From the IMG/VR virus record IMGVR_UViG_3300026274_000001: 64,000 bases of DNA; one strand, written 5' to 3'. Made by a program: the position numbers and the translations under genes. Positions 27,988-51,333 of this stretch are shown here, one piece after another; within the stretch, counting starts at the first letter, position 1, and each line of letters opens with the position of its first letter. The stretch comes from a virus (lineage: Duplodnaviria; Caudoviricetes). The notes under the pieces were generated by a model. That model was not told the origin of the DNA. It saw nothing but the letters and a program-made list of their open reading frames with translations, and did not search any database.

Positions 27988-28320
27988 ATGCTTATCAATA
28001 AAACAAATAATAATTTCACACCACGTGACGTGTTGGCAATTAAGTTTGGTAACGGTGAAGAAATCATTGCTACTTTGGTTGAAACTGATGGCACCACAAT
28101 GACAGTAACTAAGCCAGTTATTATGCAACTGGTACATGCTGGCAATGGTCAAGGAGCGGTTCAATTTGCCCCGTTCATGCTTGGTGTGGATGACGACAAA
28201 CATTATACGTTTACGCTATCGTCACTGTTGGTGGCTCCAATTATCGCTCGGAAAGATGCGGCTTCTCAATATATGAAGGCAACATCAAGTCTTGATCTGT
28301 CAGCTGGCGGATTGCTGTAA
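27988..28320 (+). CDS. small beta-barrel (Sm-like) protein
   Basis: IKFGNGEEIIATLVE...TKPV pattern. Confidence 0.5.
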   Translation: MLINKTNNNFTPRDVLAIKFGNGEEIIATLVETDGTTMTVTKPVIMQLVHAGNGQGAVQFAPFMLGVDDDKHYTFTLSSLLVAPIIARKDAASQYMKATSSLDLSAGGLL

Positions 28321-28321
28321 T

Positions 28322-29371
28322 ATGCCAAACACCGCACGCCTTACCGATATGCATAGCCATGGTGGTCAGATCATATCAGCCAGTCCAGATCGTCAAGCTA
28401 ATGGCTTGGGGGTTGCTCGTATTGGTGATATGGTTATGTGTCCTCAACATGGACTAGTGACAATCATTAATGGTTCGAGCGGTGTTCAAACTAATGGTTT
28501 GGCAACTGCTCGTCTGGGTGATATGCTATCATGCGGCGCCACTATTATCATGGGTTCTCCTGATATGGATACTGGTGATACCGGCCCTGGTTCTGCGGTA
28601 CAAGGACCAGTGATTCTATATCCAGCACCAGATGGCGGTGCACCATTAGTTTATACTGAACAAGACTTGGGGCCTGAATACGACGATCCTCCAAGCAATA
28701 GCGCTGGATTATCAATCTATCCGCCAATACGCGATCGTGCACCAACAGCAGCAGAAGTAGCTCGCAATGATGCGTTGGTGGGGACCGCTCCTGCTCCCAC
28801 TCCGGTATCTACAGAAACCACGGCAGCAACACCACCAGCCAGCCAACCGGTTGATGCTTCGGGGATTACATCTCCGATACCTGACTCTTTACAGTTGTCA
28901 CCTAATTTTACAGTAGGTGATCTTTCCACTAAAGCCTTGTGTGCTCATAAGCTACAAGCACAGCATGGATTAACTGATGTTCAAATTGCCACTAATCTCA
29001 AAGCATTGTGTGTAAATGTTTTAGAGCCGTTTGCAGCCAAGTTTGGTAGAACTAATATGGTAATAAACAGCGCCTTTCGTCCCACAGGATCTTCCGTAGT
29101 TGCTTCAGGCTATAGTCAACATGAAAGTGGATGTGCTGCCGATATTCGATTTGTAGATCAGAATCGTGGCTCTATTTCTACTGATGTTTGGTGGGATCGA
29201 GTGCTGTGGATTAAAGATAATCTCCCGTATGATCAAATGATTGTCGAATATATTCATAATAAACCCTGGATACATCTTTCCTTTGCTCCCACATTGCGTC
29301 GACAGTTGCTGACTGCGGTGTTGAGTGGCGGTAGGGTAACGTATCCACATGGACTTCAGAAATTAGTATGA
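28322..29371 (+). CDS. PAAR domain fused to M15-type Zn peptidase
   Basis: ARLTD..SHGG, ARIGD..CPQHG, ARLGD..SCGA; Pro/Thr linker; LSPNFT, NSAFR, SQHESGCAAD, WIHLS. Confidence 0.8.
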   Translation: MPNTARLTDMHSHGGQIISASPDRQANGLGVARIGDMVMCPQHGLVTIINGSSGVQTNGLATARLGDMLSCGATIIMGSPDMDTGDTGPGSAVQGPVILYPAPDGGAPLVYTEQDLGPEYDDPPSNSAGLSIYPPIRDRAPTAAEVARNDALVGTAPAPTPVSTETTAATPPASQPVDASGITSPIPDSLQLSPNFTVGDLSTKALCAHKLQAQHGLTDVQIATNLKALCVNVLEPFAAKFGRTNMVINSAFRPTGSSVVASGYSQHESGCAADIRFVDQNRGSISTDVWWDRVLWIKDNLPYDQMIVEYIHNKPWIHLSFAPTLRRQLLTAVLSGGRVTYPHGLQKLV

Positions 29372-31156: not shown

Positions 31157-32085
31157 TGATGTTGCTGATCGGATCAAGAGCTGCCGCATACTGGGACGAC
31201 ACTTTTCGTAAACCGAAAGATGTCGACTTGATTGCACCGCTGATCGATATTCATAAGTGGGCAATGCTGAACAAAGATCATATTGAATATATGGTCCCGA
31301 CTTCACGTTGGAAGTTTAAGTGCAAGCTTAAGGATGGATTTCAAATTGAGATCGAAATTGCGGAAGAGAATCCAAGTTCGCAAATGTTATGGGACGATAG
31401 AGATTCGTTTCCAACAATATTGTTGGTTATTGGTAAGTTGCGATTTGAAGTAAAGGTGCCAACACCAGAAGTCCTTTACTGGATCAAGCGTAGTCACATT
31501 TACTGGAATGTGCATTGGTACAAGAATATTGCCGACTTGCATGAGCTTAAAGCTAGCTGCGAACGTGACGAATTGAATTACTGGGAAAAGATTTACACTG
31601 CAAGGCTGGCTGAAAATGAAGCAAAGTTTGGCCCTCGATTCACTGCGAAGCTTAATCAGCCTAATGATAAGTTCTTTGCCAAGTCAGAGAAATCTCTGAA
31701 ACGTCAATTTGAGCACGATGACTTGCATGAAATTGTGAAGTATTACGATCGTCCATTGTATGAACAATTCAAGGATGACAAAAGTAAGGCGATCATGAAC
31801 GTAGTTATGTTTCATAATGCAGATTATGAGAAGAAGCTTCGTTGTGTACGGGAAGAGGCGATGGTGATCGCGCTTGAACGTTACGTCATACCTGGCAATA
31901 TGTCAAATCCTGTAACGGCGTATCAACAAGCGCTGCGTCGAATTTGTACCAATCTCACTTCTGGTTGGTTTAGGGAATTTGCAATTGATCATTGGAATGA
32001 AATTAACGTACCAGATGTACCGTATGTGACATTGATGGAATTGGCGAAAGAGAAATTGAATGCGAATACTGCATTGGCATTATAA
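31156..32085 (+). CDS. putative Pol-beta-fold nucleotidyltransferase with helical C-terminal domain
   Basis: LIGSRA...KDVDLI (GS/DxD); KRSH; HDDLHE. Confidence 0.6.
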   Translation: MMLLIGSRAAAYWDDTFRKPKDVDLIAPLIDIHKWAMLNKDHIEYMVPTSRWKFKCKLKDGFQIEIEIAEENPSSQMLWDDRDSFPTILLVIGKLRFEVKVPTPEVLYWIKRSHIYWNVHWYKNIADLHELKASCERDELNYWEKIYTARLAENEAKFGPRFTAKLNQPNDKFFAKSEKSLKRQFEHDDLHEIVKYYDRPLYEQFKDDKSKAIMNVVMFHNADYEKKLRCVREEAMVIALERYVIPGNMSNPVTAYQQALRRICTNLTSGWFREFAIDHWNEINVPDVPYVTLMELAKEKLNANTALAL

Positions 32086-32359
32086 CGATGGTGTGCAACA
32101 GCATTATGATCTGCGATTGGGTGATTGGGTAGTAGAACCAGAAATTGAACAATCTGAAATTGGTTGGCATTGTTGGGTGTTTATGTCAAGTGACGAAACA
32201 CAGTTTTTCAATGACTGGTTGCAGTTACATATACGCAAGGGTTACGAAGCTATTTCTAGGTTTAATAGTGGCGACCCTATGACCACATTACAAATTGTTG
32301 ACGAAACTGAATCATTAAAATTTAAAGAATATTGGAGCGAATATTTTGACCCCTATTGA
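32060..32359 (+). CDS. FKLxW-family-like protein
   Basis: DWLQLH...QIVDETESLKFKEYW. Confidence 0.6.
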   Translation: MRILHWHYNDGVQQHYDLRLGDWVVEPEIEQSEIGWHCWVFMSSDETQFFNDWLQLHIRKGYEAISRFNSGDPMTTLQIVDETESLKFKEYWSEYFDPY

Positions 32360-32747
32360 ACGACATCACTTCGACTGTGACTGTGGTAGTGACGAACATA
32401 CTTTTAAATTTGCGTATGATCCAGATGATGGTGACTTGTATTTGTCAGTGTATCTGGATCAATATCGTACTTTCTTCCAACGTCTTGGTACTGCTATAAA
32501 GTATGCGTTTGGATATACTAGCAAGTGGGGCCATTGGGATACTACTATACTTTCACGTGACGATGCGGCGCGCCTGGCGGCACTCTGCCAGCGTTCTATT
32601 GTAGCTCGAGATGCGTATGTAGCCTCGCATACACAAGCTTCCAAAGCGTCTGTAGACGCGGCCGTAAGTGACGAAGAAATTGATACGCCCGACGCTGAAA
32701 ATCCACGTGGCTTTAATCGCATAGTGATCCCGGAAGTTCGAGGATAG
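32346..32747 (+). CDS. hypothetical protein
   Basis: CDCGSDEH motif. Confidence 0.7.
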   Translation: MTPIERHHFDCDCGSDEHTFKFAYDPDDGDLYLSVYLDQYRTFFQRLGTAIKYAFGYTSKWGHWDTTILSRDDAARLAALCQRSIVARDAYVASHTQASKASVDAAVSDEEIDTPDAENPRGFNRIVIPEVRG

Positions 32748-32766
32748 TAAACAGTAACACTGTTAC

Positions 32767-32792
32767 AAAAAGCCACCGTAGGGTGGCTTTTT
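32767..32792 (+). terminator. intrinsic terminator
   Basis: AAAAAGCCACC-GTAG-GGTGGCTTTTT. Confidence 0.8.
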
Positions 32793-32859
32793 ATTTTGCC
32801 AAACATTTGACATTTGGCACATTGAGCATAGAATATGTGTCTGGCAACCAGGAGACAAC

Positions 32860-33093
32860 ATGCATGATCAACAAGACTTTCTCATCGCGCACGGATGTAC
32901 AACGACAGAAGAATATGATCGCAAGCGATTCTTCGAATGGGTCGATGCTCTGGAAGACGAATACGGTCGTAAAGAGCGAATGGTTGTCCCCCGTCAAAGA
33001 CACCAAGGTGTCATCATTCAACCGATCGAATCAATCGTTCGCCGCAAGCCGAAAAAAGTAAATCACCCAGTACAACGATCAGCCACACAATGA
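32860..33093 (+). CDS. hypothetical protein
   Basis: GGAG RBS; TTGACA-N16-TAGAAT promoter at 32807-32834. Confidence 0.7.
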   Translation: MHDQQDFLIAHGCTTTEEYDRKRFFEWVDALEDEYGRKERMVVPRQRHQGVIIQPIESIVRRKPKKVNHPVQRSATQ

Positions 33094-33123
33094 TCAATAG
33101 TCAGTACCACATGACTAACGTAC

Positions 33124-33152
33124 TTGACATATCGCCATTGTTATAGTATTAT
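33124..33152 (+). promoter_or_regulatory. sigma70 promoter for tmRNA
   Basis: TTGACA-N17-TATTAT. Confidence 0.75.
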
Positions 33153-33158
33153 GTTTCC

Positions 33159-33477
33159 TTGATGCTGTTGACCTTTAGTGGAATAGATTGTTTGGACGGC
33201 GGTTCGATTCCGCCCATCTCCACCACAACAGCCTTTGTAGTTTAGCAATAGACAGGTCTAGGCGGCGCATTGATAAAGCGCATGGGTGCATGATCGAAAG
33301 GGCTGTTATGATGGGGATGACCAGGTTTCGACAGGCGATGACAAAGACTAAACTAGGTATCCGTTGAGATGACGCTCGTAAAGCGCATAAATTTGTAAAT
33401 GCAAACGATAACTCGTTCGCCATCGCCGCTTAAAAACCGGTAAGGCTGAGGGTGGTCCCCTTATAACTGAATAACCC
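33159..33477 (+). ncRNA. ssrA: circularly permuted (two-piece) tmRNA
   Basis: acceptor piece ending GGCGG-TTCGATT-CCGCC-CATCTCC-ACCA (33225) precedes coding piece starting GGGGATG (33313); G3:U70 pair; tag ANDNSFAIAA-stop at 33401-33433; outer ends approximate. Confidence 0.92.
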
Positions 33478-33501
33478 AAAAGACGCCGCAAGGCGTCTTT
33501 T
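33478..33501 (+). terminator. intrinsic terminator after tmRNA
   Basis: AAAAGACGCC-GCAA-GGCGTCTTTT. Confidence 0.85.
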
Positions 33502-33610
33502 GCCATGTGGCAATTGAACCATTTTGTTAAGTAGTTGCGCATTCAAGTTGGCTATGTAGAATGGGAACTCCCGAAGTTGATTGGGGAAACGGTACAACTA
33601 GGAGAAGTCA

Positions 33611-33775
33611 ATGACGAATCAACAGCAGTCAGGGCAGAACCAAAATCCGAATCAAGATCCAAGCAAGCAGGACCAGTCTGGTCAACAACAGCAACGACCG
33701 GATCAACAGCACGAAAAGAGGGATCCGAATCAACAACAACCCAACCAGAAGCCGGGCCAACAAGAAAAGATGTAA
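33611..33775 (+). CDS. 54-aa Gln/Asn/Pro-rich hydrophilic peptide (not in ORF track)
   Basis: GGAG RBS; MTNQQQSGQNQNPNQDPSKQDQSGQQQQRPDQQHEKRDPNQQQPNQKPGQQEKM; hairpin at ~33801-33828. Confidence 0.65.
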   Translation: MTNQQQSGQNQNPNQDPSKQDQSGQQQQRPDQQHEKRDPNQQQPNQKPGQQEKM

Positions 33776-36220: not shown

Positions 36221-36679
36221 ATGGAACAACTTGATGCAGACATTCAAGCATTACTTGATGAGCGAGCAAGAACGATGCTCGACTTTACTGAGGATCACCG
36301 GCCCCTCAACATGTATGCAATCTATCGCGCTGATCTTGAAATGACAGCACCAAAGCTCGCTGCGCAAACCGGACACGCGTTTCTCAATGCCTGGGTCAAA
36401 GCTAGTAAACAACGTCCTGAGATTGCAAATGAGCTTACGTACATGGGAACGGGCGAAGGCACGAAGATTCTCATGTACGCGAAGAATCTTAATCAATTGA
36501 TTCGTGCATATCGTGACTGCCAAGCAGCAAATATTCCGCATGCTTTGATCATTGATCGTGGGCATGTCATGCTTCCGCATTTTACTGGTAAGCCTATCAT
36601 TACTGCTTTGGGTATTGGCCCTGCTTATCGTGATGAGATAGCTCATATCACGAAGCGTTATACGATGGCAAAAAACTAA
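36221..36679 (+). CDS. Pth2-type peptidyl-tRNA hydrolase
   Basis: YRADLEMTAPKLAAQTGHA, TKI, IIDRG, TALGIGP. Confidence 0.8.
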   Translation: MEQLDADIQALLDERARTMLDFTEDHRPLNMYAIYRADLEMTAPKLAAQTGHAFLNAWVKASKQRPEIANELTYMGTGEGTKILMYAKNLNQLIRAYRDCQAANIPHALIIDRGHVMLPHFTGKPIITALGIGPAYRDEIAHITKRYTMAKN

Positions 36680-38299: not shown

Positions 38300-38738
38300 A
38301 TGAACACAGCTATGCAGTAGGTTCTGTAGCCCCCTCGAATTTCATACTCCCACGGAGAATGAAGAGGATCCTTATCGTCTGATTGCCGTCATTCGCGGTG
38401 ACCTCGATATGCCGTCCGGTAAGCTTGCATCTCAAGCTGGACATGCGTATCTCAATTCCTTTTTAAAATCGCAACAAGAACGTCCTGATATCGCTGAATT
38501 TTACCAGCGTGATGGTATTGGCACGAAGCTTTGTCTTGAAGCCAAGAATCAAGACGCACTCTTGAAAGCCTACCATGCGGTTCAAGCTGCTGGTATCCCC
38601 TGTTCGTTGATCATCGACGAACATCATGTTTTACCTCCCCACTTCGATGGAAGCCCAATCATTACCGCACTCGGTATTGGTCCAGCTCGCAAGCACGAAG
38701 TTCATCAAATCACGAAGAGGTTCAAATTATGCCAATAA
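38300..38738 (+). pseudogene. second Pth2-type peptidyl-tRNA hydrolase with apparent frameshift just after the start codon
   Basis: YRLIAVIRGDLDMPSGKLASQAGHA lies upstream of track start 38409; the RBS-linked ATG at 38300 is out of frame by one base. Confidence 0.6.
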
Positions 38739-48165: not shown

Positions 48166-49056
48166 ATGTCAAGCGTATTACAAAACTTACAAAAGCGTCA
48201 ACTGATTAACGCCCCTGCTTACGTTGTTTCGAATATTCAATATGAAACAATCATGGGCTCGGAATCGTACGGCGTGGCAAATGATGATAGTGATCGGGAC
48301 GTATACGGTTTTTGCTTTCCGCCAAAGGATATCATCTTTCCGCATTTGGATGGTCACATCAACGGATTCGGCCCAGAACCGCAGAAATTTGAACAGTGGC
48401 AGCAGCATCACATCATTGACAAGGAATCCCGTAAGGAATATGATCTGTCGATCTACAGCATTGTGAAATATTTTTCACTGCTGATGGAAAACAATCCGAA
48501 CATGATCGACAGTATCTTCACCCCACGTCGTTGCGTGTTGCATTCGACCAAGGTTGCTGAAGTAGTTCGTGACCGACGCAAAGAATTCCTGCACAAGGGT
48601 TGCTGGCACAAGTTCAAGGGCTACTCGTTTGCACAATTGAGCAAAATCAAGAACAAGACCAACTCATCCAACCCAAAGCGGGCGGAATCGATTGCAAAGT
48701 TCGGTTACGATGTCAAGTTCGGCTATCACGTTATTCGTCTGTTGAACGAATGCGAGCAGATCTTGATGACTGGTGATCTTAATCTTGAACAGAATCGAGA
48801 ACAATTGAAATCCGTTCGTCGTGGTGAATGGACGCTTTTGCAGATTGATGAATTCTTTGAGAGTAAGCAAAAGACACTTGAAAACTTGTATGCTTCAAGC
48901 ACGTTGCAACATTCACCAGATGTGGCAGTATTGCGTGAACTGCTGTTGAACTGCATCGAAGAACATTACGGCAAAGTTAGTGCTGTGGTAGTACGTAACG
49001 ATTCCATGGGTAACCTGATCGGTGACATGGAACAATTATTGGCAAAATACAAATAA
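48166..49056 (+). CDS. RlaP/YcgL-like Pol-beta nucleotidyltransferase
   Basis: MGSESYGVANDDSDRDVYG; KFKGY; YHVIRLL. Confidence 0.8.
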   Translation: MSSVLQNLQKRQLINAPAYVVSNIQYETIMGSESYGVANDDSDRDVYGFCFPPKDIIFPHLDGHINGFGPEPQKFEQWQQHHIIDKESRKEYDLSIYSIVKYFSLLMENNPNMIDSIFTPRRCVLHSTKVAEVVRDRRKEFLHKGCWHKFKGYSFAQLSKIKNKTNSSNPKRAESIAKFGYDVKFGYHVIRLLNECEQILMTGDLNLEQNREQLKSVRRGEWTLLQIDEFFESKQKTLENLYASSTLQHSPDVAVLRELLLNCIEEHYGKVSAVVVRNDSMGNLIGDMEQLLAKYK

Positions 49057-49544
49057 TGAATGAATTGTATCTATACACCCCAAAACCATATTGGAGTTTT
49101 GAGGTTAATAATATTGAAGAGCGCCGTAATTGTAAGTATGTAGGTGACTTTGCAATCAAAGATCGTAATGGTAATTGGGGTGAAGTGCCTTGTGCTATTT
49201 TCTGGCAGGAGCAACCACCAGTAGCTGGCTATTCACATTATTTTGCTGTGTTTGCGAAAGCTGGTGATAAGAATGCGTATATCACCAGTGCTGCATCAAT
49301 TGAAGATATGGTGATGACGGGAATGGTTGCTGATAACGGTGAAGTAATTTATAGTCGTTATCGTCATGACTGCGTTTATAGTACTGATGGGACAGCAATG
49401 ATCGACGGTGGGCGAGATTACGTTCGTTCGCTGTTTCCGTGCAGACCAGTAAACGTTAAGCTGGTAGGTCCCAATCTAGTGATCGAGGAGGTGCCTCTTG
49501 ATGAACCAGGAACTGACGACCAAGTTATTCAACAAGTATCCTGA
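49056..49544 (+). CDS. hypothetical phage protein
   Basis: YSRYRHD...IDGGRDY. Confidence 0.75.
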   Translation: MNELYLYTPKPYWSFEVNNIEERRNCKYVGDFAIKDRNGNWGEVPCAIFWQEQPPVAGYSHYFAVFAKAGDKNAYITSAASIEDMVMTGMVADNGEVIYSRYRHDCVYSTDGTAMIDGGRDYVRSLFPCRPVNVKLVGPNLVIEEVPLDEPGTDDQVIQQVS

Positions 49545-50016
49545 ACTGTTTGCAAGACATACTGATCCCAAGTCAGATATGTCACATGGTATCTTTTGTG
49601 ATGACGGTTGGTATCAATTGATTGAAACCACGTGCAGAACGATTCAGAAATATATCAATACTGCTCATTTGTTTCAAAGCGGTCGGATCAATATGCCTGA
49701 GTCAGTAGCGCAAATTGAGTTTGACAGCGTAAAAGAGAAATTCGGGAAGTTGCGCTTTAGCGTGTGGGAATGTCCCGATCCATCAATTCTCAATATGATG
49801 CAATTGATCGAAACACTGTCCGGTCATGTATGCGAAGTGACTGGTAATGTCGGTGAGACCTATTTGATCGATGGTCGGCAAGTGAAGACTCTTTGCAAAG
49901 AAGAGGCGGAAAAGCGTGGTGCGGTGTTGATGGAACACAGTCCGTTCCATGATGACTACGGGCTGGAAGCGCTTCGCCTAATTGCAGCCAATCCAGCTGA
50001 CTATAAGAAAGATTAA
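49501..50016 (+). CDS. hypothetical phage protein
   Basis: CDDGW...KEKFGKLRF...CEVTG. Confidence 0.75.
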   Translation: MNQELTTKLFNKYPELFARHTDPKSDMSHGIFCDDGWYQLIETTCRTIQKYINTAHLFQSGRINMPESVAQIEFDSVKEKFGKLRFSVWECPDPSILNMMQLIETLSGHVCEVTGNVGETYLIDGRQVKTLCKEEAEKRGAVLMEHSPFHDDYGLEALRLIAANPADYKKD

Positions 50017-50031
50017 GAAACCAAGTTTTAA

Positions 50032-50059
50032 AAAGGCACAAGTCAAGGCTTGTGCCTTT
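50032..50059 (+). terminator. hairpin terminator
   Basis: AAAGGCACAAG-TCAAGG-CTTGTGCCTTT. Confidence 0.7.
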
Positions 50060-50106
50060 CGCCATTCGAGTGTATCATATGAATAAGCTAAAACACCGGA
50101 GAATAT

Positions 50107-51333
50107 ATGAGCACGTTTGCCGTAAAAGTTCGCAAAATCAAACTGATGCCCCACCCGAAGGCTGACCGCCTAGATATCGCAGTAGTCGATGACTACCAAT
50201 CGTGTGTTCGCAAGGGCGACTTTGCTGACGGCGATCTGGCGGTTTATATTCCAGAGGGCGCCGTTCTCCCCGACTACGTTCTCAAAGAAGTTGGTTTGTG
50301 GAACGAAGCAGAGAACAAGGGTATGGCTGCTGGCGAACTGGGCGACCGTATTCATGCTGTGCGACTCCGTGATGTGTTAAGTCAAGGTGTGCTGCTGAGC
50401 ATTCCAGGTTTCTGGCGTGTGGGTGACGCACTCGAAAAACAAGACAAACTCACTGCTGAACAGATAGTTGATTTCAACTTTTACCATCAAGCTGGTATGA
50501 AAGAAGGCGAAGACGTTCAGCATCTAATCAATGTGATCAAGTACCAGCCTGAACTGCCTCCCTTCATGGAAGGCGATATTATGGAATTGTTTGATCATAC
50601 ACGACACTTTGATTTGGAAGATGAAAAGCGTTTTCCCAATGCGCTCATCCCCGGCGAAGAAGTAGTTATGACGGAAAAGCTGCATGGTTTATTCTGCCAG
50701 ATTGGTGTTATTCCCAGTCTCAAAGATGAACGACTGCTTGATGGTCATATGTTCGCCACCAGCAAGGGCTTTGCTAATGACGGTATCGTGTTCGAAAATA
50801 CTGAACGCAATACCATCGTGAACGTGTACCACAAGACCCTTCTGCGTTTGCAAGATAAGTTCAAAGCGCTTGCGATGCGTGTGAGCAATATTGAAGTGCT
50901 CAAATTGATGCGTGATAGTGATACCATTGTTGAAGATCAGCAAGTGTTTATTCTTGGCGAAATCTTCGGCATGGGCTCTGGTCAGGATTTGCATTATGGT
51001 CTGACTGAAGTTGATTTCCGAGTATTCGACATTTACGTTGGTCCACCAACGCAAGGTCGATATCTTGATTACGATGAAGTTGTGGTGGGATGCAAAGACA
51101 TTCTTGAAACTGTTCCGCTGCTATACCGAGGCCCGTACGATAAAGCTACTATTCTCAAACACCGGGAAGGTAAAACTACGTTCGGTGCCGCTAATGTGCT
51201 GGAAGGTGGAGTAGTGAAGCCCACTACTGAACGGCGTGATCTAGAACTTGGTCGAGTAATTTTGAAGTTTATCAACCCAGACTATTTGACTCGTAAAGGT
51301 AAAAAGGGGCAGCAGGTAACTGAATTTACCTAA
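50107..51333 (+). CDS. Rnl2-like RNA ligase with N-terminal OB/tRNA-binding-like domain (DRB0094 family)
   Basis: HPKADRL...RLRDVLSQG; TEKLHG; GEIFG; EGGVV; LKFINPDYL. Confidence 0.85.
   Translation: MSTFAVKVRKIKLMPHPKADRLDIAVVDDYQSCVRKGDFADGDLAVYIPEGAVLPDYVLKEVGLWNEAENKGMAAGELGDRIHAVRLRDVLSQGVLLSIPGFWRVGDALEKQDKLTAEQIVDFNFYHQAGMKEGEDVQHLINVIKYQPELPPFMEGDIMELFDHTRHFDLEDEKRFPNALIPGEEVVMTEKLHGLFCQIGVIPSLKDERLLDGHMFATSKGFANDGIVFENTERNTIVNVYHKTLLRLQDKFKALAMRVSNIEVLKLMRDSDTIVEDQQVFILGEIFGMGSGQDLHYGLTEVDFRVFDIYVGPPTQGRYLDYDEVVVGCKDILETVPLLYRGPYDKATILKHREGKTTFGAANVLEGGVVKPTTERRDLELGRVILKFINPDYLTRKGKKGQQVTEFT

Follow-up and report, generated by a model that had tools for sequence, protein, structure and literature searches.

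On the evidence of its sequence, the 64-kb window (the whole stretch of DNA analysed here) carries a phage-borne, circularly permuted (two-piece) tmRNA gene; the gene has a promoter of its own, its tag frame is complete and its identity is that for alanine. At 33133-33524 ARAGORN predicts a permuted tmRNA with the tag ANDNSFAIAA and a stop, and two Rfam models match over their full length: beta_tmRNA (RF01850; 125.6 bits at 33110-33505, gathering threshold 84, E = 7.5e-38, model positions 1-331) and tmRNA_permuted (RF04321; 123.2 bits at 33163-33433, gathering threshold 47, model positions 1-213). Detection by RF01850, RF04321 and ARAGORN lies far past chance. RF01850 is the top-scoring subtype model over threshold. 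The order is permuted, in that the 3' half of the tRNA-like domain comes first and its 5' half follows after an 87-nt intervening segment. Across the whole window at gathering thresholds, Rfam finds this tmRNA and one tRNA only, and no riboswitch. An earlier note, made from the letters alone, had described such a gene; all the elements it listed are found at or adjoining the places it assigned to them, and both ARAGORN and Rfam call a tmRNA there. We consider it likely that this is a functional permuted ssrA gene of a giant, lytic-type, uncultured soil phage, inherited within the phage lineage and used for ribosome rescue and tagging during infection.

The gene is encoded on the plus strand. 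A sigma-70-type promoter (-35 TTGACA, 33124-33129; 17-nt spacer; -10 TATTAT, 33147-33152) gives 11 of 12 matches in a promoter scan. The earlier note had also proposed a sigma70 promoter, and the one found lies just 5' of 33159, where that note began the gene, in agreement with the likely transcript start. The RF01850 alignment likewise places its promoter-like 5' region over 33124-33152, and TTGAC is kept at the same position in two orthologues from giant phages (loci L138 and L140, described below). The acceptor piece (33159-33225, with its 5' end set from the promoter) contains the 3' strands of P2 (TTTAGT, 33174-33179; ATTGTTT, 33187-33193), the T arm (33198-33214), the acceptor 3' strand CATCTCC (33215-33221), and a discriminator A with an encoded CCA (33222-33225). 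The intervening segment (33226-33312, 87 nt) is predicted to be removed on maturation. It holds no gene-length reading frame and no small gene, and base pairing between its edges adds about 12 bp to the acceptor stem, an extension that is present in the minimum free energy (MFE) fold of the precursor.

The coding piece (33313-33501) opens with the acceptor 5' strand GGGGATG (33313-33319), which pairs with CATCTCC in a 7-bp acceptor stem that includes G3:U70, as had been claimed; the GGTTTCGAC motif is the D-loop analogue. The 5' strands of P2, AGGCGAT (33333-33339) and ACTAAA (33347-33352), pair with 33187-33193 and 33174-33179, respectively. The two pairings between the pieces that had been read off earlier (AGGCGAT/ATTGTTT and CTAAA/TTTAG) are thus correct, the same strands being located in the sequence. 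An unconstrained bimolecular MFE fold recovers the acceptor stem and not the P2 helices, so we rely on the comparative pairs for P2. An H-type pseudoknot, PK1, can be read off the sequence at 33365-33388 upstream of the resume codon (stem 1, 33365-33368 with 33375-33378; stem 2, 33369-33374 with 33384-33388, A33372 bulged); support for its presence is modest. An A/U-rich linker leads from PK1 to the tag reading frame (33401-33433), which runs from the GCA resume codon to GCC GCT and the stop TAA (33431-33433) and encodes ANDNSFAIAA. A 3' hairpin region separates the tag frame from a terminal G+C-rich hairpin, AAGACGCC-GCAA-GGCGTCTT, at 33480-33499, followed by four T to 33501. This hairpin is seen in the MFE fold, aligns with the terminal hairpin of RF01850 and is a probable intrinsic terminator. 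The terminator reported earlier is therefore upheld as a hairpin and falls short in its T run, since with four T it does not qualify in a terminator scan whose rule asks for at least five.

The pattern of substitutions indicates that the tmRNA structure is under selection. In an alignment of 10 sequences (the window gene, two giant-phage orthologues, six IMG/VR copies and one bacterial copy), double compensatory changes occur in 19 of the 37 consensus pairs. All sequences keep G3:U70, and covariation is seen in acceptor pairs 4-6 and T-arm pairs 2-4. The helix formed by the edges of the intervening segment (columns 72-84 with 267-279) also shows many compensatory changes; column pair 77/274, for instance, is CG in four sequences, GC in four, AU in one and UA in one. 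Because this edge helix occurs even in a 30-nt bacterial spacer, it is a general feature of the precursor and is not phage-specific. Between the window gene and the L138 and L140 orthologues, compensatory changes fall in acceptor pairs 4-6, the T arm, P2b and stem 2 of PK1. P2b reads TTTAGT/ACTAAA in the window, TCTAAC/GTTAGA in L138 and TCTAAT/ATTAGA in L140, and the PK1 pair 33369:33388 is A:U in the window and G:C in both orthologues, a compensatory change.

The permuted order is correctly assembled. An independent soil DNA run spans the gene in the identical order, three metatranscriptome runs give contigs that cover 32994-33450, or extend from before 31500 to 33454, without differences, and over 32860-33620 the window is matched at 100% identity by two JGI contigs from other samples. 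The DNA and RNA runs are all from 2017 soil samples and may share one campaign. A misassembled one-piece gene, which the earlier note had allowed for, is refuted by this agreement, and an assembly or binning artefact of any kind, be it a scrambled one-piece host gene or a join of host and phage DNA, is excluded, with nothing found in its favour: the same order is present in the independent DNA run, in three RNA-library assemblies and in the two identical JGI contigs, the flanks are phage genes on the same strand, and an orthologue lies inside a complete 524-kb genome with direct terminal repeats.

The gene is also present in RNA libraries. One RNA contig runs from the upstream genes through the whole tmRNA gene, including the intervening segment; as an assembled contig it shows neither strand nor RNA ends nor expression level, and precursor RNA, read-through transcription or DNA contamination could each account for it. 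Of the RNA-library contigs, one breaks off at 33450, where it runs into adaptor sequence, and another at 33454; in three RNA runs contigs restart at 33584-33588, where the DNA run is continuous. Real RNA ends are at best weakly hinted at by this pattern. The stretches uncovered in the RNA libraries (33455-33583 and 32743-32993) are no evidence by themselves.

Variation among strains avoids the mature RNA almost entirely. Over the roughly 345 gene positions in the runs compared, there are no differences in the tRNA-like domain, P2, PK1 or the tag. Three differences lie in the intervening segment (33252, 33287 and 33296), one lies in the linker between PK1 and the tag (33392), and seven lie just 5' of the -35 box (33099-33119). 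In the variant RNA-run contig X6, all three within-gene differences sit in the intervening segment. An RNA contig from run X5 (depth 5) matches 32994-33094 with five differences and then continues into 250 nt of unrelated sequence. The break, at 33094-33095, falls exactly at the start of the tmRNA promoter region, and this contig may come from a related strain with something else, or nothing, at the tmRNA site.

The window is phage DNA. One strand carries nearly all of the genes, GC varies little (40-45%), and the encoded proteins include two helicases, both RNR subunits, a PAAR-lysozyme protein and a thioredoxin reductase; no integrase was found among the window proteins scanned. By the DnaB-like helicase, the nearest isolates are Sinorhizobium phage Phosso (469 kb, 55% identity), Agrobacterium phage Atu_ph07 (490 kb) and Pseudomonas phage PA5oct, that is, phages of 287-490 kb. 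At the DNA level, megablast of positions 30-37 kb of the window against the phage collection gave no match, a distant search of that collection with the tmRNA gene returned only a 40-nt match to the T arm, and the PK1 block of this lineage had 0 matches in metagenome contigs. The tmRNA lies a few genes downstream of the PAAR gene, and the small genes next to it belong to no known family. The PAAR protein itself (28292-29371) has an N-terminal PAAR motif and a C-terminal half that matches an endolysin PHROG family.

The 18 kb that follow the tmRNA on its 3' side contain genes for translation and RNA repair, namely a pair of Pth2 genes together with a tRNA, a class-I W/Y aminoacyl-tRNA synthetase, RlaP and an RNA ligase. 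The two paralogous Pth2-type peptidyl-tRNA hydrolases (36221-36679 and 38409-38738; PF01981, 68 bits each) lie 2.8 and 5 kb 3' of the tmRNA; the match of the second begins at profile position 13, which places its N-terminus upstream of the first ATG. The remaining genes form a cluster at 45171-51333, in which the tRNA (anticodon CCT, by ARAGORN) lies directly 5' of the W/Y synthetase, followed by a NUDIX protein, the RlaP 'RNA repair pathway' nucleotidyltransferase (48166-49056) and an OB-domain RNA ligase (50107-51333). This cluster looks like a kit against host nucleases that cut tRNA or mRNA.

Other giant phages encode related permuted tmRNAs. In a 290-kb IMG/VR viral contig, locus L138 encodes one with the tag ANDNVYSMAA 1.1 kb downstream of a DUF7275 homologue; a DUF7275 gene precedes the window tmRNA too, so synteny is shared. 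Locus L140 belongs to G001 (IMGVR_UViG_3300037418_001546), a complete 524-kb genome with direct terminal repeats, and its permuted tmRNA has the tag ANDNVFAMAA. Both loci share with the window gene its leader, the spacer edges, an internal spacer hairpin, P2 and PK1, and are thus orthologues. Their intervening segments (8131-8335 in L138, 1928-2125 in L140) are about 200 nt long, against 87 nt in the window. A conserved hairpin of about 45 nt is common to these longer spacers and missing from the 87-nt segment; it contains no gene-length reading frame and has no Rfam match.

Phosso (PV764938.1) also carries a permuted tmRNA, at 349596-350198 (locus L137, 1458-2147, minus strand; RF04321, 113 bits; alpha_tmRNA, 108 bits). 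Its intervening segment measures 410 nt, and a PAAR gene lies two genes upstream of the tmRNA. The GenBank record leaves this stretch unannotated, and ARAGORN does not detect the gene. A tmRNA search of Atu_ph07 and PA5oct found none, so the gene is dispensable in this phage group. The result for Atu_ph07 agrees with Table 1 of PMC11242549, a 2024 paper that counts 0 tmRNAs for that phage and 1 for the related Sinorhizobium jumbo phage AP-J-162.

G001 encodes a full-length SmpB as well (192 bits, 151 aa; locus L142, 1495-1947; G001 330541-330969), 147 kb from its tmRNA. With this protein as the query, tblastn found nothing meaningful in the 64-kb window. An SmpB search of IMG/VR viral contigs gave about 19 loci, several of them on contigs of 296-524 kb and none from the samples of the window phage. 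Inheritance of the permuted tmRNA within a giant-phage lineage would best explain the shared sequence features. The independent permutation that the earlier note had entertained finds no support, as existing permuted models are matched over their full length with the same break point, and orthologues occur in related giant phages.

Two-piece tmRNAs in phages are already known, and the view in the earlier note that phage tmRNAs are one-piece is outdated. Buchholz et al. (2022, PMC9004378) described the two-piece tmRNA of the Methylophilales phage Melnitz and counted 53 two-piece forms among 133 unique tmRNA structures from 18,146 phage genomes, mostly aquatic. We found the same permuted layout in 116 IMG/VR contigs, 113 of which ARAGORN calls permuted, with tags mostly of the AND..(A/L)AA type. 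Al-Shayeb et al. (2020, PMC7162821) report tmRNAs and SmpB in huge phages. Given these studies and the IMG/VR contigs, the window gene is a new example of a known form.

Like the two-piece tmRNAs of Melnitz, pelagimyophages and some cyanophages (PMC9004378), the window gene is a permuted ssrA in a lytic phage with a host-type early promoter and a complete tag frame, and the role proposed for those tmRNAs, maintaining or exploiting the hijacked translation machinery, is the one that we propose here. Those phages are marine, T4-like and about 140-170 kb in size, with an alpha-type gene, whereas the window comes from a giant soil phage whose gene fits the beta model best. The Melnitz gene further includes a glutamine riboswitch in its 3' part, whereas Rfam at gathering thresholds finds no riboswitch in the window. 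Phosso and AP-J-162 belong to the same giant-phage group as the window, the DnaB-like helicase of Phosso being 55% identical. The Phosso tmRNA lies near a PAAR gene like that of the window; it differs in its alpha type and in its 410-nt segment (87 nt in the window). The AP-J-162 paper (PMC11242549) counts '1 tmRNA' and does not describe its form. Like the huge phages of Al-Shayeb et al. (PMC7162821), the window phage is giant and rich in translation genes, and G001 is equipped with both tmRNA and SmpB; the available part of that paper makes no mention of the permuted form.

Among bacterial systems, the betaproteobacterial two-piece tmRNA (RF01850; Sharkady and Williams 2004, as cited in PMC9004378 and PMC11915505) resembles the window gene, which matches the full model, and both have AND...AA tags. 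The tRNA-like domain of Gallionellaceae copies and of many viral copies is identical to that of the window. In contrast, the bacterial copies that we found have intervening segments of 25-40 nt, and the P2 and leader of the window align only with the giant-phage orthologues, which themselves fail the beta threshold. For the two-piece tmRNA of Caulobacter (Keiler, Shapiro and Williams 2000, likewise as cited in PMC9004378 and PMC11915505), one precursor is cut by tRNA-processing enzymes into base-paired acceptor and coding RNAs. That gene is chromosomal, alpha-type and experimentally proven, whereas the mechanism outlined next for the window gene is drawn by homology only.

From the observed anatomy, covariation, assembly and RNA-library presence, we infer processing, charging, use of SmpB, tagging and a benefit to the phage, as follows. 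Host RNA polymerase would read the near-consensus sigma-70 promoter, and the precursor would fold with the edges of the 87-nt intervening segment lengthening the acceptor stem. The tRNA-processing enzymes would then release two pieces, with RNase P predicted to cut before G33313 and 3' trimming to halt at the encoded CCA (33225). The acceptor and coding pieces would be held together by the acceptor stem and the P2 helices, and G3:U70 would direct charging with alanine. SmpB, either that of the host or one encoded by the phage as in G001, would bring the RNA to ribosomes stalled on broken mRNAs. Translation would resume at GCA and append ANDNSFAIAA, marking the product for host proteases and freeing the ribosome. 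The likely benefit is that ribosomes are kept available while host mRNAs, and also phage mRNAs, are cut in the course of infection. The more specific role suggested in the earlier note, upholding rescue once the tmRNA of the host has been cut, is speculative.

Other functions for the gene can be envisaged. The RNA could act against the host by competing with host tmRNA for SmpB and ribosomes and imposing a phage tag, which would alter the fate of tagged proteins or blunt a host response that depends on trans-translation. Such a use would fit the tag, as ANDNSFAIAA occurs in no scanned bacterial species genome and differs from the nearest Burkholderiales tags, and it has parallels in an RNA of phage DS6A consisting of the TLD only, reported as a tmRNA inhibitor (PMC4131195), and in bacterial second-copy permuted tmRNAs whose tags do not end in AA. 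We nevertheless regard it as distinctly unlikely, in that the tag retains the canonical AND start and the C-terminal Ala-Ala required for a degradation tag, the tRNA-like domain nowhere departs from the commonest beta-type sequence, and the SmpB of its relative G001 fits added rescue capacity better than blocking. The RNA might instead serve as a sensor or timer, in which the load of stalled ribosomes is read through the tagging of a phage regulator and so tunes development or the timing of lysis, along lines proposed for phages that depend on tmRNA. This idea is raised for huge-phage tmRNAs in PMC7162821, which cites a review, and the gene's own host-type promoter does suggest early expression. 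Nothing at the locus indicates a regulator as the target, however, the neighbouring small genes being without known family, and the window belongs to a lytic-type giant phage with no integrase among its scanned proteins; we hold this reading to be very unlikely.

A further reading, disfavoured and highly improbable, is that the phage picked the gene up from a bacterium and carries it as a decaying or neutral passenger of no use to it. Atu_ph07 and PA5oct do without it, and its RF01850 score of 125.6 bits is below those of other viral beta-type copies (128-188 bits). Against decay, no stem is broken and the stems differ from those of the orthologues by compensatory changes, promoter and tag frame are likewise whole, and strain differences avoid the mature parts except at 33392 in the PK1-to-tag linker. 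The gene is moreover found at the same position in the 290-kb viral contig and is present in the complete 524-kb relative. Ribosome rescue and tagging on behalf of the phage, with the gene inherited in its lineage, accordingly remains the reading we prefer.

The earlier note took the permuted form as a possible clue to the host, a suggestion that is only weakly supported. Rfam types both L138 and L140 as alpha_tmRNA (78.9 and 96.1 bits), with beta below threshold in both, and the Phosso tmRNA is likewise typed alpha and fails the beta threshold. Since orthologues are typed alpha and the window copy beta, the Rfam subtype does not mark descent here. The permuted form itself also says little about the host, because four of five betaproteobacterial genomes checked have a full-length standard tmRNA as well, with the permuted gene as a second copy. 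The tRNA-like domain of the window gene equals the commonest beta-type sequence (32/32 and 23/23 positions). Two other features lean towards one class. The best 80 bacterial relatives of the G001 SmpB are almost all from Betaproteobacteria, at 65-72% identity. ANDNSFAIAA resembles the standard tags ANDNSYAQAA, which occurs in Herbaspirillum and Duganella, and ANDNSYALAA; the ANDNSYA[L/Q]AA form, found in 11 of 401 sampled Burkholderiales genomes, is the nearest among Burkholderiales tags and differs at Tyr6 and position 8. Among the bacterial species genomes and IMG/VR contigs scanned, not one contains the exact ANDNSFAIAA coding pattern, and the thioredoxin reductase, considered as a further clue to the host, has no close bacterial relative. 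Together these sequence features are suggestive only, and weakly so, of a host for the window sub-lineage that is probably a betaproteobacterium.

It is also conceivable, though on balance unlikely, that the permuted tmRNA is ancient and has passed vertically within a clade of giant phages from soil and rhizosphere with hosts across bacterial classes (Sinorhizobium for Phosso and probably Betaproteobacteria for the window sub-lineage), and that phages move permuted genes between bacterial lineages. If so, the beta-type second copies of Gallionellaceae, Herbaspirillum, Duganella and Pseudaquabacterium would be phage-derived, and three 'independent' bacterial permutations would not be fully independent. 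A search for the permuted layout with an encoded CCA in bacteria gave 0 matches with a 65-95-nt spacer and 17 with a 15-45-nt spacer. The surroundings of the bacterial second copies differ, with housekeeping genes around the Gallionellaceae copy and a tRNA and an integrase close to the Herbaspirillum copy, and the evidence that such copies are mobile elements is mixed.

Taken alone, the window gene adds little: one more phage with its own ribosome-rescue RNA. The retention of the gene in very large soil phages beside translation-repair genes, together with SmpB in G001, supports the view that giant phages protect the translation machinery. The change between alpha and beta among clear orthologues means that subtype alone is unfit for inferring a phage host or the origin of a tmRNA. 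The Phosso tmRNA is absent from the GenBank annotation and could be added.

The bacterial second copies show several features of their own. In the Gallionellaceae MAG UBA12482 (L249), a standard one-piece tmRNA at 97-466 (tag ANDEKYALAA) and, after a gap of about 280 nt, a permuted one at 749-1080 (tag ANDENFAMAA) stand in tandem, a layout that resembles the duplication intermediate expected for gene permutation. Genomes of Herbaspirillum, Duganella and Pseudaquabacterium contain both tmRNA forms, on different contigs. In Duganella and Herbaspirillum, the tags of the second-copy permuted tmRNAs (L117, L121, L123-L126 and L133) end in ...YGT, ...VGT or ...FGT, as in ANEPQFVAYGT, and perhaps do not act as degradation signals; in these genomes the standard tmRNA has the tag ANDNSYAQAA.
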